Positions 32,814 through 38,073 of a stretch of 64,000 bases of DNA are shown here, piece by piece. This DNA comes from Halobacteriovoraceae bacterium (GTDB lineage: Bacteria; Bdellovibrionota; Bacteriovoracia; Bacteriovoracales; Bacteriovoracaceae), in the NCBI GenBank assembly GCA_963719505.1, contig CAVRCF010000002.1, forward strand, positions 352,001 through 416,000, in the 5' to 3' direction. The position numbers and the translations under genes were made by a program. A model generated the notes under the pieces. It did not search any database. It was given only the letters and a program-made list of their open reading frames with translations, and was not told the origin of the DNA. Position 1 is the first letter of the stretch. Every line of letters starts with the position of its first letter.

Positions 32814-33755
32814 TTAAACGAGCTCTTCAACCTCTTTGAAATACTTAAATGTTGTACCGATGTTTGAGGCTATTTTAATATGTTCTTGGGAGTCCATTTT
32901 AGTGGTCCACCAAGACTTTCTTATGAGAATTTGATCAACAAGGTTTGGGTGGAGTTTAGATATTTCCAAATAAATTTCAGGATCTCTTTGGCCTTCATCA
33001 CCGATGAGAATCAATTGACCTTTGTTAACGAGCTTCGAGATCTCTATAAGGTAGTCAAACTTTTGATGATGAGACTTTTTTGACTTTTGTTTGTCTCTTG
33101 TATTTTGAAGAAGGATTGGTCCGTTTGGAAAATCAAATTCAAGAATAAAATCTTTAATCATAGGATAGAGATCCCATGTCGAGCTTGAGACGTATATGAT
33201 TTTATTTCCTGCTCTTTCTAAATTCTGATAAAATTCACTCGCTCCTTCAAAGGAGCTTCTTTTTTTTAAAGGTCTAAATAGAGTTCTCAGTATTAACTTG
33301 GTAAGATTGGTCGCTTGAGATTTTAAAATAGTATCATCGAGATCACTCACAACAAGTTTCGAATCTCGACTCAGAAAATCAATAGGTATGTCTTTGTAGT
33401 TCTCATGCCCTTTTATTTTAAATTTTAAAACTTTTGATTGGGTTTCTACTTGTAGAGTCTTTTCAATAAATCCTCTTTTTGATGTTTTAAGAATGTGTTT
33501 TCTTCCATCAATGAGAAGCTCTACCTCTGTTCTTTTCGAACTTCTCGACAAAAAGAGTCGAATAACTTTGAGGATATGGGATGGATGTGAATCCTTTTTA
33601 GAGAATTTGATATCGGAATTTGATCTTACGATTCTAAGCCTCAAAAAAAGATTTTCACCATTGCTAATACAGGCGTATGTAAGAACCCTTTTAGGTTCTT
33701 TTCCTTTGAAGATAGACAAAGTCTCTCTTAAAAAATGGAGTGCATGATTAAGCAT
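32814..33755 (-). CDS. App1/DUF2183-like phosphatidate phosphatase (HAD-like)
   Basis: VSDLDDTI, YVSSS, FPNGPI and IGDEGQRDPEIY. Confidence 0.82.
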   Translation of the reverse strand: MLNHALHFLRETLSIFKGKEPKRVLTYACISNGENLFLRLRIVRSNSDIKFSKKDSHPSHILKVIRLFLSRSSKRTEVELLIDGRKHILKTSKRGFIEKTLQVETQSKVLKFKIKGHENYKDIPIDFLSRDSKLVVSDLDDTILKSQATNLTKLILRTLFRPLKKRSSFEGASEFYQNLERAGNKIIYVSSSTWDLYPMIKDFILEFDFPNGPILLQNTRDKQKSKKSHHQKFDYLIEISKLVNKGQLILIGDEGQRDPEIYLEISKLHPNLVDQILIRKSWWTTKMDSQEHIKIASNIGTTFKYFKEVEELV

Positions 33756-34014
33756 TTTTACCTCTTTGTTGATTTGTCTTTTCTATCTTAACAAATACAG
33801 AGAGATATACCTTGTATTGATTTGCATCAGATGTGTATTTTTTTTCAATAAATACAATATATTTCTATGACGAGGTGCAAGCTATGAAAGTTGACTTTTC
33901 TACTGTCTTTTCTCTTCAAAGAAACAATAAGTTGTAGTGTTTTGTGTTGAATTATTCACAGTACCTTCATGGATTTATGAGATAAAAGGTAAATACCTCC
34001 CGTATTATTATTAC

Positions 34015-34140
34015 AAGAGGAAGAGATCACATCTCTAAACCAGTCTAAGGACTAAACGGCCCGCCTCAAGTAGCTAAAAAATTTTAGCTACATTATCTAA
34101 AAAAAGTATTTATCAATACATTCTAGAATCTCTTCCTCTT
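34015..34140. ncRNA. Candidate structured ncRNA, copy 1
   Basis: 13-bp closing IR AAGAGGAAGAGAT/ATCTCTTCCTCTT. Internal hairpins AGTC-TAAG-GACT, GTAGCTAAAA-AA-TTTTAGCTAC and GTATT-TATC-AATAC. Confidence 0.55.
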
Positions 34141-34301
34141 AAGCTTTTTAAAGTTTAAATCTATCGCGCTAGTAGGTGAGTCTTTAGGTCGATTTTGAAT
34201 AAATTTGGTTTCAATGACTTGTATATTTTTGTGTTTAATATTGCACAGAACCTTCATGGATTTATGAGATAAATTGTAAGCACCTCACGTACTATTATTA
34301 C

Positions 34302-34427
34302 AAGAGGAAGAGATCACATCTCTAAACCAGTCTAAGGACTAAATGCCCCACCTCAAGTAGCTAAAAAATTTTAGCTACATTATCTAAAAAAAGTATTTAT
34401 CAATACATTCTAGAATCTCTTCCTCTT
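34302..34427. ncRNA. Candidate structured ncRNA, copy 2
   Basis: Same stems as copy 1, all preserved. Confidence 0.55.
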
Positions 34428-34433
34428 AAGCTT

Positions 34434-34889
34434 TTACCAAGAGCCAATATTTTCCATGCTCTGCCATGGCTCGCATATTTTAAGAGAATCACCTTTTTGA
34501 AGCAGTTCTATAGAGATACCATCAGGAGATTTGATAAAGGCCATGTGTCCATCTCTTGGAGGTCTATTGAGAATAACACCTTGATCCATCAGGTTCTTGC
34601 AAAATTCATAAATATTATCTACTCTGTAGGCAAGATGACCAAAGTTTCTTCCACCTTGATAGTCCTCAGTGTCACCATTTTCATCAGGCCAGTTATAGGT
34701 TAGCTCGAGAAGGGGAGATTTACTTGTTTGAGCTTTTTCAAAATTTTCATCATCTGACAGAAAGATCAATGTAAAACGTCCTCTTTCATTCTCTGATCGA
34801 CTGACTTCTTTGAGGCCAAGCTTATCACAGTAAAAGTCCAAACTTTTTGTTAGGTTTTTAATTCTTATCATCGTGTGAAGATATTGCAT
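34434..34889 (-). CDS. gloA: Lactoylglutathione lyase (glyoxalase I, VOC)
   Basis: YLHTMIR, LELTYNW, FGHLA and AFIKSPDGISIELLQ. Confidence 0.9.
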   Translation of the reverse strand: MQYLHTMIRIKNLTKSLDFYCDKLGLKEVSRSENERGRFTLIFLSDDENFEKAQTSKSPLLELTYNWPDENGDTEDYQGGRNFGHLAYRVDNIYEFCKNLMDQGVILNRPPRDGHMAFIKSPDGISIELLQKGDSLKICEPWQSMENIGSW

Positions 34890-34897
34890 GAGAACTC

Positions 34898-35626
34898 CTA
34901 TAAGTTTTTATATAAAATAAAGGATCCCATAATAATAAGAAAAATAGCAAATATCTTTTTTAATTTTGCTTGTGGAACTTTTGTATTAAGGATGGCACCT
35001 AGGAAAATACCAATAGTTGAGCAGATTGAAAAAAGGATCATGAGCTTCCAAGGTATATCGACTCTGCCAAGATAGGATAGGAAGCCAAAAATAGAATTAA
35101 AGCTAATAATGAAAAGTGATGTTCCCACAGCTTTTCTCATATCTATTCCGGTAAAGAACATAAGTGCCGGAACGATTAAGAACCCCCCCCCAACGCCGAT
35201 AATTCCTGTCATGACTCCAACAAAAATGCCCGATACTGAGATGAGTGGGTAGTTGAGACCTCTGGGGTGGTCATCTATTTCAGCTCTTCCTCGAAACATA
35301 AATACTGCGGCAATTATCATAATGGCAGAAAAAATGAGAAGTTGTATCTGACCGGTTAAAAATTGACTTAGATAAGATCCAAGATAGGTTCCAGGTACGG
35401 CGAACCCTCCAAAGATAAAAGCAATTTTAAAACTTATGTTTTTATTTTTAAAGTGACCGTACATGCCCATTAAAGCTGTCCAACCAACAATCGCTAAGCT
35501 CATTGCAACGGAGACTTTAGGGTCTACATTAAAGATGTAGACAAGAATGGGGACGGTGAGAATAGATCCACCTCCACCAAGAAGGCCCATTGCCAAACCA
35601 GCAAATAAAGCTAAAGCATATCCCAT
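34898..35626 (-). CDS. TauE/SafE family sulfite exporter
   Basis: GLLGGGGSILTVP, GIIGVGGGFLIVP and AVGTSL. Confidence 0.9.
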   Translation of the reverse strand: MGYALALFAGLAMGLLGGGGSILTVPILVYIFNVDPKVSVAMSLAIVGWTALMGMYGHFKNKNISFKIAFIFGGFAVPGTYLGSYLSQFLTGQIQLLIFSAIMIIAAVFMFRGRAEIDDHPRGLNYPLISVSGIFVGVMTGIIGVGGGFLIVPALMFFTGIDMRKAVGTSLFIISFNSIFGFLSYLGRVDIPWKLMILFSICSTIGIFLGAILNTKVPQAKLKKIFAIFLIIMGSFILYKNL

Positions 35627-35675
35627 AATCTTATTCCTTTTCTTTCTATACTAGCTTTTAACCAGCGGCATGTAA

Positions 35676-35689
35676 TTGATAGAGATCAA
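35676..35689 (-). promoter_or_regulatory. FNR/CRP-type box upstream of the tauE-family gene
   Basis: TTGAT-AGAG-ATCAA is a perfect FNR consensus, centred about 41-42 bp upstream of the start expected from the -10-like TAGTAT (35648-35653, minus strand). Confidence 0.75.
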
Positions 35690-36294
35690 TGACCAAAGTT
35701 TTTTAAGTCTTCTTCACTCAAAATATCTATGGATCTTCCATTCTTCTCAATAATCTTGGCTTTTTCTAGTTTTGATATAACTCTTGCCACTGACTCTGGG
35801 GTTGTCGATGCGAAATCAGCGATGTCTTTACCTTTCCATTTAATTTCGGGATCTTTAATTTTCAAAAAAAGTAAGGCTTCGGCCACTCTCTTAGTTACTG
35901 TTTTATCCTGGACTGATGCTAAACGAATTTCAGTTTGCGCCAAGTCCCTTGCCAAGGTTTTCATAATCGTTTTTAAAATTTCTGGGCTTTCAGAGCAAAG
36001 TTGATCACATGCCTCTTTTGAAATGACTTTCACTTTTATATCTGTGAGAGCAAAAGCTGTAGCGTGATGGGGCTCTTGTGCAAAAAAAGAGCGATGACCC
36101 ATATGATCATTTTCTTTGAAGATTCTGAGAAATGTGCTCTTTCCATTTTCTGTATTATAAGAGAGTCCAACAACACCATCAAGGAGATAGTAGACATGGT
36201 CTGGAGCATCACCCTCATGGTAAACAAAAGCGCCTTTAGTTAATACTTTTACTGGAAGAGATGTATCTAACTTGACGATATTACTTAGACTCAA
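35686..36294 (-). CDS. Crp/Fnr family transcriptional regulator
   Basis: cNMP-like domain (VYHEGD) and HTH IADFASTTPESVARVI. TTG start. Confidence 0.88.
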   Translation of the reverse strand: MSLSNIVKLDTSLPVKVLTKGAFVYHEGDAPDHVYYLLDGVVGLSYNTENGKSTFLRIFKENDHMGHRSFFAQEPHHATAFALTDIKVKVISKEACDQLCSESPEILKTIMKTLARDLAQTEIRLASVQDKTVTKRVAEALLFLKIKDPEIKWKGKDIADFASTTPESVARVISKLEKAKIIEKNGRSIDILSEEDLKNFGH

Positions 36295-36314
36295 GTGTTA
36301 ATCCTTTTACAAAA

Positions 36315-36328
36315 TTGATAGAGAACAA
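36315..36328 (+). promoter_or_regulatory. FNR/CRP-type box upstream of the persulfide dioxygenase operon
   Basis: TTGAT-AGAG-AACAA matches the 35676 box at 13 of 14 positions. A -10-like TATGAT at 36351-36356 gives class II spacing. Confidence 0.7.
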
Positions 36329-36387
36329 TGTTTTAAATTTGATATTAATATATGATACTGAATGAAAGGACTATTAGGAAATATATT

Positions 36388-37266
36388 ATGACTTTAAAAG
36401 TACAACATTTTTTCGACGAAAAGACTAAAACATTAAGTTATATCGTTTATGATGAAAAGACGTCAGACTGCGTCCTTATTGATCCCGTTTTAGATTATGA
36501 TCAAGCCTCCTCAAAGATTTCAAATGAATCAATAAAGGCGGTTAAAAGTTTTATAGCAAAGAAGTCTCTAAAGGTGCATTATATTTTAGAGACTCATGCT
36601 CATGCGGATCACCTCTCAGGAGCTCAGGAATTATTAGAATCTTTTGATCATGCAAAGCTTGTGATTGGAAAAAACATCACAAAGGTTCAAGAAGTTTTTT
36701 CTAAAATATACAATTTAAAAAACCTAAACCTCAAAGGTGAACAGTTCGATATCTTAGTCGATGAAGACTCTGTTTTGAAAGCCGGAAGCTTTGAGATTAA
36801 TGTCATCGAAACTCCTGGGCATACGCCAGCTTGCGTCTCTTATCATATAGAAAACCATCTCTTCACAGGAGATGCTCTTTTTATGCCTGACTATGGAACG
36901 GGAAGGTGTGACTTTCCAGCAGGAAGTGCAAAAGACCTTTACCATTCAATACACGAAAAGCTTTATAAACTACCAGATGAAACACAGTTCTACACCTGTC
37001 ACGATTATCAACCCAACGGAAGACAGATGATATACACATCTTCAATCGGTGAGAGTAAAGCTCGTAATATTCAGTTGAAAGACTCTACAACACGTAGTGA
37101 GTACATAGAGTTCAGAGAGAAAAGAGATGCCACTTTGAGCGCACCAACTCTTTTACTTCCAAGTATACAAATAAATATTGATGGAGGCCGTCTTCCCAAA
37201 GAAGAAGACAACGGCACCTCTTATATAAAAATACCTTTAAACAGAGAGGACGAATATGAACGGTGA
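36388..37266 (+). CDS. Persulfide dioxygenase (ETHE1/Blh-like metallo-beta-lactamase fold)
   Basis: ETHAHADHLSG, TPGHTPAC, GDALFMPDYGTGRCDFP and CHDY. Confidence 0.88.
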   Translation: MTLKVQHFFDEKTKTLSYIVYDEKTSDCVLIDPVLDYDQASSKISNESIKAVKSFIAKKSLKVHYILETHAHADHLSGAQELLESFDHAKLVIGKNITKVQEVFSKIYNLKNLNLKGEQFDILVDEDSVLKAGSFEINVIETPGHTPACVSYHIENHLFTGDALFMPDYGTGRCDFPAGSAKDLYHSIHEKLYKLPDETQFYTCHDYQPNGRQMIYTSSIGESKARNIQLKDSTTRSEYIEFREKRDATLSAPTLLLPSIQINIDGGRLPKEEDNGTSYIKIPLNREDEYER

Positions 37267-37675
37267 AATATTATTTCCTCTTATTGGAGGCATTTTAATT
37301 GGGTTGGCAGCTAGCCTTGTTCTTGTCGGTTTAGGAAAAATCACAGGTATAAGTGGTATTTTAGCATCAGCCGTTTTTAATCCAACTCTTAAAGAAAATG
37401 TCTGGAAGATTGTTTTTGTCTGTGGCTTGATTCTTGGTGGACTTTTAATGAGAAGGTTTTATCCCGAACTTTTTAACTATTCCATTTCAACCAATATTCC
37501 TCTTGTTATTGCGGCAGGTTTGTTGGTTGGATTCGGCACCAGGCTTGGAAGTGGATGCACCTCTGGGCACGGGGTTTGCGGTTTACCAAGACTGTCAAAA
37601 AGATCCTTAGTCGCGACCCTCACTTTCATGGGGAGCGGAATTATAACTGTTCTGATTAAAGGAGCTCTTTCATGA
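37256..37675 (+). CDS. YeeE/YedE family sulfur-transport membrane protein (PmpA-like)
   Basis: GISGI and GSGCTSGHGVCG..R.S.RS. Confidence 0.88.
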   Translation: MNGEILFPLIGGILIGLAASLVLVGLGKITGISGILASAVFNPTLKENVWKIVFVCGLILGGLLMRRFYPELFNYSISTNIPLVIAAGLLVGFGTRLGSGCTSGHGVCGLPRLSKRSLVATLTFMGSGIITVLIKGALS

Positions 37676-38073
37676 AAAATGTTCTGAGTTTATTTGCAGG
37701 GATGATATTTGCCATAGGTCTTGTCGTATCAGGAATGACAAATCCCGCAAGAGTCATCGGTTTTTTAGATATTTTTGGGCAGTGGGATTATTCCTTGGCC
37801 TTTGTCATGGGTGGAGCTGTTGTTGTTAACTTGGTTCTTTTTCGATGGATTTTAAAAAGAGATCCCATTTTTAATGGTAAACATGATCTTCCGACAAATA
37901 AGCTTATCGATAAAAAACTAATTATTGGATCAACTTTATTTGGTGTCGGTTGGGGACTTGTTGGAATTTGTCCAGGTCCAAGTATCGTTAATCTCGTCAC
38001 TGGAAACGTCAGCGCAATCATCTTTTTTCTCGCAATGATTGCTGGTTTTTTCTTAGAAAAAAAGCTTAATTAA
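37672..38073 (+). CDS. YeeE/YedE (DUF6691, PmpB-like) membrane protein
   Basis: GM.NPARV.GFLD..G.WD.SL and FGVGWGL.GICPGP. Confidence 0.88.
   Translation: MKNVLSLFAGMIFAIGLVVSGMTNPARVIGFLDIFGQWDYSLAFVMGGAVVVNLVLFRWILKRDPIFNGKHDLPTNKLIDKKLIIGSTLFGVGWGLVGICPGPSIVNLVTGNVSAIIFFLAMIAGFFLEKKLN

Follow-up and report, generated by a model that had tools for sequence, protein, structure and literature searches.

A tandem pair of conserved units at the gloA stop codon

The window considered here is a 64-kb stretch of the genome of a Halobacteriovoraceae bacterium (contig CAVRCF010000002.1, positions 352,001 to 416,000; all coordinates count from its first letter), and our subject is a pair of units in the gap between an App1-like gene and the glyoxalase gene gloA. 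The two units are direct copies of 224 nucleotides (nt) each, 92% identical and at a spacing of 287 nt. A first-pass annotation of the window, made from the letters alone, had drawn attention to two tandem copies of 217 bp at this place; it is the same repeat, the 224-nt unit having been trimmed by 7 nt. The locus is laid out as follows.

32814-33755, minus strand: App1-like phosphatidate phosphatase gene, the next gene on this strand (PF09949, E 8.8e-38).
33925-34148, no strand assigned: copy 1 of the unit (repeat family D1), the extra paralogue, with a faster-changing 5' block.
34212-34435, no strand assigned: copy 2 of the unit (repeat family D1), in the orthologous position by the layout of contig L059 (see below), its right end overlapping the gloA stop codon.
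34434-34889, minus strand: gloA, glyoxalase I family (PF00903; TIGR00068 at 119.6 bits against a cut-off of 120).

An exact 22-mer scan of a metagenome collection returned a sole contig, L059, which carries a single orthologous copy of the unit at the same place, its right end again overlapping the gloA stop codon. Synteny with the window extends over App1, gloA, tauE, a Crp/Fnr-family gene, an MBL-fold gene and two more genes, at 66-76% nucleotide identity. Two genes of L059 are absent from the window: a peroxiredoxin gene (L059 4207-4788) between the element and App1, and a gene of 235 amino acids (aa) without Pfam match (L059 5606-6313) between gloA and tauE. The pair of gloA and element thus stayed intact through changes in the neighbourhoods on both sides.

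How well conserved is the unit given the divergence of its surroundings? Across the 126-nt core that each unit contains, plus its short tail, window and L059 are identical at 127 of 144 positions (88.2%), as opposed to 165 of 440 four-fold degenerate sites in the seven orthologous genes (37.5%, about saturation; Fisher p 5.5e-28) and 3142 of all 4401 coding positions (71.4%; p 2.9e-6). The longest exact words common to the 10-kb L059 locus and the 64-kb window, 32 and 30 nt, both fall inside the element, the best in coding DNA being 23 nt. With a core 88% identical where four-fold sites are at 37.5%, the module is, judged by this comparison, under strong purifying selection. No other stretch of the 10-kb syntenic region is conserved as well, and since even the surrounding proteins are less so, the module must do something. 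Conservation ends sharply at the gloA stop codon, synonymous conservation not being raised in the last gloA codons, and at the opposite edge it fades about 40 nt past a conserved block.

The L059 layout identifies the copy next to the gloA stop codon, copy 2, as ancestral and copy 1 as the extra one; this polarity and the tie to the stop codon are points that the first-pass annotation did not contain. With L059 as outgroup, nine changes fall on copy 1 and four on copy 2, and six are ambiguous. The 19 sites at which the copies differ are unevenly spread, with 16 in the 81 sites of the 5' part and three in the 143 of core plus tail (Fisher p 1e-5). The flanks of the two copies are unrelated, and beyond the unit limits their similarity does not exceed that of shuffles; reading the sequence, we saw no target-site duplication around the units. 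The limits of cross-species conservation coincide with those of the duplication, so that the conserved unit and the duplicated unit are one and the same discrete piece of about 205-224 nt.

Two trivial explanations can be weighed at this point. The pair might be a collapsed or expanded repeat in the assembly, which is unlikely given the 19 differences between the copies and their dissimilar flanks. Or it might be a neutral leftover of duplication without function, as could be suggested by the fact that only two genomes carry the module. A core 88% identical where neutral sites are at 37.5%, together with the differences and distinct flanks of the copies, makes either version hardly credible.

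A core with a long closing stem and one variable segment

Each core is closed by a perfect 13-bp inverted repeat, AAGAGGAAGAGAT and ATCTCTTCCTCTT, with 100 nt between the arms, and is predicted to contain three internal hairpins of 4, 9 and 5 bp. This architecture, already proposed in the first-pass annotation, came out of the repeat search and of folding either strand. The duplex energy of the closing stem is -19.1 kcal/mol, and against dinucleotide shuffles the cores of the three known copies have z-scores of -7.0, -6.4 and -5.5 on the plus strand and of -5.0, -4.6 and -4.1 on the minus strand. The features of the module are these.

34015-34140: core 1; closing stem 34015-34027/34128-34140, hairpins 34042-34053, 34070-34091 and 34106-34119.
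34302-34427: core 2; closing stem 34302-34314/34415-34427, hairpins 34329-34340, 34357-34378 and 34393-34406.
34022-34036: alternative hairpin AGAGAT-CAC-ATCTCT, a competitor of the closing stem, within the 32-nt word identical in L059; its copy 2 twin is at 34309-34323.
34057-34063: hypervariable 7-nt single-stranded segment, CGGCCCG in copy 1, TGCCCCA in copy 2 (34344-34350) and CGTCCTA in L059.
34099-34124: A7 run, hairpin 3 and ATTCT, in the 30-nt word identical in L059; on the minus strand this reads as a weak hairpin, then U7.
34141-34149, plus strand: tail of AAGC and a T-run, T5 in copy 1, T4 in copy 2 (34432-34435) and T7 in L059; conservation and duplication both end here.
34230-34272: distal conserved block of copy 2, with a TGTG-N10-CACA dyad (34230-34247), TTGCAC (34241-34246) and TTTATGAGATAA (34261-34272).
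33943-33960 and 33974-33985: the copy 1 equivalents of the dyad and of TTTATGAGATAA.
34273-34282 and 33986-33995: 10-nt hypervariable stretch after the distal block, in copy 2 and copy 1 respectively.

Read along the plus strand, conserved and variable parts alternate. The dyad overlapping TTGCAC is followed by 16 moderately conserved nt, the invariant TTTATGAGATAA, 10 hypervariable nt and CCTC(A/C)CGTA. Then come 32 invariant nt, which hold the end of the leader, the 5' closing-stem arm and the hairpin that competes with this stem, and hairpin 1 with a change in its loop. The 7-nt hypervariable segment, CCT(C/T), a variable hairpin 2 and 30 invariant nt (A7, hairpin 3, ATTCT) complete the interior, and at the right end stands the 3' arm, changed at one site and followed by AAGC and a run of 5, 4 or 7 T.

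All three differences between the two cores sit in the 7-nt segment, exactly as first described, and the same spot is variable in L059. The alternative hairpin that might compete with the closing stem is likewise present in both copies; the local fold of this 5' region consists of two adjacent hairpins at -9.7 to -10.8 kcal/mol. A further flanking hairpin, AATAC-CTCCC-GTATT in copy 1 and AGCAC-CTCAC-GTACT in copy 2, has the sequence reported, though its supposed compensatory change is not kept in L059.

Does the predicted structure leave a trace in the pattern of substitutions? Among 30 modelled pairs, 27 never vary, and the remaining three comprise one compensatory change (A-U to G-C, in hairpin 2), one G-C to G-U change and one broken pair. 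Pairing is retained in 98.9% of cells, as opposed to 40-51% in slid controls, keeping in mind that the model was derived from the same sequences, so that this comparison is flattering. The covariation that the first-pass annotation had proposed to look for in homologues amounts to the one pair in hairpin 2. The fold rests on thermodynamics and retained pairing; covariation is too thin for proof, and the fold is not proven.

Taking duplication, conservation and folding potential together, we consider it very probable that we are dealing with a structured non-coding module, discrete and under selection, in line with the view of functional siblings differing in one variable segment, a view to which the 88%-conserved L059 orthologue lends support. 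Within this general claim, a function at the level of RNA is favoured, and a new small structured RNA is the most likely identity of the module.

Known range of the module

Note that the host genome (3.69 Mb in 5 contigs) is 83.5% complete, so that negative results there do not prove absence. A BLAST-type search of this genome returned only the two copies, the next best match having E 0.2 over 22 nt, and the genome-wide search for further copies that had been suggested at the outset accordingly ends with the known two. The suggested family check fared no better: in Rfam 15 (33000-35500, both strands, E up to 10) no match came near a gathering score, the only overlapping one, to sn2417, scoring 15.5 bits where the gathering score is 80 (E 6.3). 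DNA searches of 60 relatives produced only A/T-rich matches of 22-49 nt.

A covariance model built from the three copies (copy 1, copy 2, L059) gave eight matches at E 0.11-0.66, the level of chance, in 150 other genomes of the family, a single, unconvincing match in 150 other genomes of the phylum (E 0.017, within an open reading frame, or ORF, of 504 aa), and none at the loci of 80 gloA relatives. Pattern scans of a genome-contig collection found 0, 3 and 1 loci, which the covariance model showed to be chance matches throughout, and those of viral contigs 0 and 0. A genome-wide motif hunt for the distal blocks found no second site.

None of 12 family relatives with gloA has App1, tauE or crp beside it; among three genomes of the same genus App1 is found in none, tauE in two and gloA in two (52-55% identity), and the element in none; and an App1 search of the genome-contig collection found no relative. 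The known range is two organisms, with the module duplicated in one of them, which limits its wider importance.

A candidate small RNA gene on the plus strand

What kind of RNA might the module encode? Our preferred reading, to which we assign a probability of roughly 0.4, is that of a stand-alone small RNA (sRNA) gene of about 160 nt on the plus strand, duplicated into siblings that differ in a short C-rich segment. Its transcription, strand and ends, along with the switch and the pairing targets described below, are inferred, as opposed to the duplication, the folding potential, the strong conservation and the location at the gloA stop codon, which are established. Each unit would be a self-contained gene convergent with gloA, with the distal conserved block (TGTG-N10-CACA dyad, TTGCAC and TTTATGAGATAA) as its control region. 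Transcription would start within the 10-nt hypervariable stretch that follows, the RNA body of about 160 nt would be the 126-nt core preceded by a short leader (CCUCACGUA.UAUUAUUAC), and its 3' end would be at the AAGC-U(4-7) tail overlapping the gloA stop codon. The gloA messenger RNA (mRNA) is bound to extend into the element, which would also make the sRNA antisense to the mRNA 3' end.

The 5' arm of the closing stem would at first be engaged in the two local hairpins and only later be captured by the 3' arm. As the 5' arm can fold locally first, the RNA may toggle between a closed form and an open one that exposes the C/U-rich 13-mer. A specificity or seed region could be provided by the C-rich variable segment of 7 nt beside CCUC, which differs between the siblings. 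A search for targets complementary to the C/U-rich arm yielded 415 purine-rich matches, which is noise.

Several observations point towards the plus strand. The core z-scores are stronger there, and conserved blocks give way to 10 variable nt and these in turn to a conserved body, as at a promoter and start site. Only on this strand is the -19.1 kcal/mol closing stem followed by a T-run, and the change in the closing stem of L059, G-C to G-U on the plus strand, becomes an A-C mismatch on the minus strand. The only U-tract hairpin on the minus strand reaches -3.1 kcal/mol, compared with -17.2 for a canonical terminator in the window, and reading the window and L059 sequences we saw no conserved minus-strand promoter at the gloA 3' end. 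The promoter-like TTGCAC of the first-pass annotation is present, as TTGCAC-N16-TATGAG, and is conserved in L059.

A number of results pull in the opposite direction. TTGCAC-N16-TATGAG agrees with the sigma-70 consensus in only 7 of 12 positions, its -10 element does not end in T and the promoter scan did not call it; in copy 1, moreover, the presumed -35/dyad block has undergone changes. The terminator-like end is unorthodox, with a stem that encloses 100 nt, an AAGC spacer and a T-run of only 4 in copy 2, and it was not called by the scan. The minus strand forms 61 pairs as against 34 on the plus strand, the structure conservation index is equal on both, and the covariation is negligible, 186 of 500 shuffles doing equally well. 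The change in hairpin 2 of L059 pairs only on the minus strand, as U-G, so that the earlier argument on strand, which had pitted a minus-only G-U pair against the promoter-like sequence, now stands at one wobble specific to each strand, the plus-only one being in the closing stem of L059. Hfq was not found in the genome, although control genomes responded to the search. Finally, the distal block does not fit a FliA-type promoter, for which a study on the Bdellovibrio attack phase gives TTAAG-N16-CCGATA (PMC3627812). Sigma-54, sigma-28/FliA and extracytoplasmic function (ECF) readings of the distal block were rejected on spacing and key bases.

Regulatory RNAs are almost unknown in the Bacteriovoracaceae, and a literature search by title and abstract opening found no report of sRNAs in this family. 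Should the module indeed be a glyoxalase-associated sRNA or switch at an mRNA end, it would connect RNA control in these bacteria with electrophile and sulfur stress. Being small and discrete and offering a natural contrast between single and double copy, it is also an easy experimental target.

The minus strand: a possible extension of the gloA transcript

All flanking genes lie on the minus strand, and the main alternative, somewhat less likely than the plus-strand gene, is that the module acts there, as a structured 3' extension or intercistronic region of a tauE-gloA transcript. Such an extension would begin 6-9 nt past the gloA stop codon. It could have a part in mRNA stability or processing, give rise to an RNA derived from the 3' untranslated region (3'UTR) or control read-through into what lies downstream, App1 in the window, peroxiredoxin and then App1 in L059. 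During termination at the end of gloA a ribosome would cover the start of the closing stem, so that the fold could be coupled to translation.

That the element abuts the gloA stop codon in both organisms, despite gene gain or loss on either side, is readily accommodated by such an extension. So are the additional pairs formed through G-U, including an 8-bp hairpin with the 10-nt hypervariable stretch as its loop, and the minus-only wobble in hairpin 2 of L059. In addition, gloA has no canonical terminator, though the genome uses them, and after core 1 the minus strand carries a terminator-like CCTCTT...GGGAGG with a T-rich tail. There is no such terminator at the distal end in copy 2 or in L059, however, and the weaker z-scores on this strand and the A-C mismatch in the L059 closing stem speak against it too. 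The downstream gene differs between the organisms, and each such gene seems to have a promoter-like sequence near its own start. A perfect 13-bp stem of -19 kcal/mol is moreover too stable for a typical ligand-gated closing (P1) stem.

In a more specific version, which we think quite improbable, the minus-strand RNA would be a signal-responsive switch that separates gloA from the stress gene after it (peroxiredoxin or App1). Such a four-way-junction sensor, its closing stem in competition with the two local hairpins, would here be arranged in tandem like some riboswitches, and would gate read-through or mRNA fate among genes of glutathione and sulfur detoxification. Its input might possibly be a thiol- or methylglyoxal-related metabolite, or the terminating ribosome. 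As a riboswitch or cis-acting leader in the usual sense the module was rejected: the downstream gene is App1 in one organism and peroxiredoxin in the other, P1 has 13 perfect pairs, and a terminator-like platform is seen only after copy 1.

Constraint on DNA or on a small protein

Sequence in the module is kept beyond what pairing requires, with 27 of 30 pairs invariant and identical words of 32 and 30 nt, and this could be explained if selection acted on DNA. Under such a reading AGAGATCACATCTCT, GTATTTATCAATAC, the TGTG-N10-CACA dyad and the 13-bp inverted repeat would be sites for protein binding, recombination or single-stranded DNA hairpins. The dyad is over-represented in the genome, and a discrete unit was copied without recognisable flanks, both of which would be in keeping with a DNA-level element. 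Hairpin 2 argues otherwise, as it keeps its pairing through a double change from A-T to G-C when its sequence is not conserved. Perfect complementarity of 13 bp across 100 bp is unneeded for the binding of a dimer, and the dyads of the module agree with the apparent consensus of the genomic sites in its outer TGTG/CACA alone. All in all we regard a DNA-level function as improbable.

Two known classes of DNA element were considered and rejected. A miniature inverted-repeat transposable element (MITE) or repetitive extragenic palindromic (REP) repeat does not fit because there are only two copies, adjacent to each other, in 3.69 Mb; the inverted repeat is, in addition, internal to the unit. The core sites of integron attC elements are RYYYAAC and GTTRRRY. 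Here the stem ends in AAGAGG and CCTCTT, there is no GTTRRRY and there are two copies only; an integrase was not searched for.

The gap was first described as free of ORFs, which is not strictly true in view of the following.

34123-34257, minus strand: candidate ORF of 44 aa, weak evidence, starting in the distal block of copy 2.

This ORF raises the question of whether the locus might be a sense/antisense pair like those of type I toxin-antitoxin systems, in which a minus-strand mRNA (ORF from 34257 down to 34123, the core as leader) would be opposed by the antisense plus-strand sRNA. Its frame alone is open over 20 codons in both copy 2 and L059, where the N-termini of the ORFs are similar (MKVLCNIKHK... 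in the 44 aa of copy 2, VEVLCKKRHK... in the 20 aa of L059 4897-4956, minus strand), and among the six frames it scores highest by BLOSUM (40, the others 7-27). A column-shuffle P of 0.008 has to be read in the light of the fact that shuffling breaks up conserved blocks, so that this control favours the observed order. Loci of this kind typically show tandem duplication and long-range closing stems. Yet the two peptides are hydrophilic, in which they do not resemble type I toxins, usually hydrophobic, and of unequal length (44 and 20 aa), the copy 1 counterpart stops at codon 5, no Shine-Dalgarno sequence was seen before the start, and a search for homologues of the small ORF found none. All six residues that are identical after the start use identical codons, which suggests that the constraint is on nucleotides rather than on protein. 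We give the small ORF little weight as a protein gene, and a toxin-antitoxin arrangement appears very unlikely.

Comparison with known RNAs

The closest parallels to a plus-strand sRNA pair are tandem sibling sRNAs, such as PrrF1/PrrF2 of Pseudomonas and OmrA/OmrB of E. coli. Like these, the module consists of adjacent paralogous units of about 200 nt with their own upstream blocks and with near-identical bodies that differ in one short segment, and it has a relative, in L059, with a single copy. It differs from them in that there is no sequence or Rfam relation, Hfq was not found and neither a canonical promoter nor a canonical terminator is present. Structured intergenic RNAs of 100-200 nt are also described among the attack-phase sRNAs of Bdellovibrio bacteriovorus, which is predatory and probably of the same phylum (PMC3627812); the FliA-type promoter given there is not present in the module.

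From the perspective of the minus strand, the module resembles 3'UTR-derived RNAs such as CpxQ and SdhX in following directly upon a stop codon and in being linked to one gene across species. CpxQ and SdhX end at the strong intrinsic terminator of their mRNA and use Hfq; no strong terminator is found at the distal end of the module on this strand.

The first-pass annotation had instead been reminded of retron msr-msd and of Y RNAs. As in retron msr-msd and bacterial Y RNAs, the ends of the core pair in a long stem around several hairpins, and while the msr-msd of retrons is flanked by a1/a2 inverted repeats, a 13-bp inverted repeat that closes the core is by itself not retron-specific. No gene for a reverse transcriptase or a Ro60/TROVE protein was found in the genome or adjacent to the module in either organism: RVT_1 (PF00078) and TROVE (PF05731) each gave 0 matches in the 83.5%-complete genome, the control genomes having responded. 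With no reverse transcriptase, no TROVE protein and no Rfam match, both comparisons are left unsupported.

Neighbouring genes and the TGTG-N10-CACA dyad

The genes that neighbour the module in the window are gloA, App1, tauE and crp. Four-fold sites of gloA are identical at 24 of 39 positions (34434-34889 vs L059 5136-5591), above the 27-43% of its six neighbours, an excess that is not concentrated at the 3' end. The cluster beside gloA (34898-38073) looks like a set for sulfur or persulfide detoxification, with a TauE-type exporter, a Crp/Fnr-family regulator, an MBL-fold protein and two small genes. Among NCBIfam models, the MBL-fold protein scores best with that for the dioxygenase half of the Blh sulfur transferase/dioxygenase (327 bits, where the cut-off is 625).

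A Crp/Fnr-family gene is conserved near the module, and if a GATAAA hexamer is read as the -10 element, the centre of the dyad lies 29.5 nt upstream of that hexamer, which we take to be the position of a class II activator. A Crp/Fnr site is nevertheless only a lead, since the spacer between TGTG and CACA is N10 here and N8 in the canonical CRP site (TGTGA-N6-TCACA); spacer length is described as critical in PMC8465061.

Across the genome TGTG-N10-CACA occurs at 44 sites, compared with 11-28 for the other spacings from N4 to N14, and half of these sites (22) are in DNA without ORFs of 90 aa or more. These intergenic sites suggest a palindrome near TGTGTAG-N4-CTACACA, which could be the site of an unknown regulator or mark the ends of insertion sequences. 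Six of them look like the ends of repeated elements, probably insertion sequences, with near-identical dyad-containing sequences in inverted pairs around ORFs (C2:429583/431206, C4:21198/22889 and C5:1091174/1092680, the last around an ORF of 479 aa). The intergenic region between the divergent crp and MBL-fold genes (36295-36351 vs L059 7722-7813) has, for its part, three conserved blocks, including TAATATATGATACT, and a 28-nt insertion in L059.

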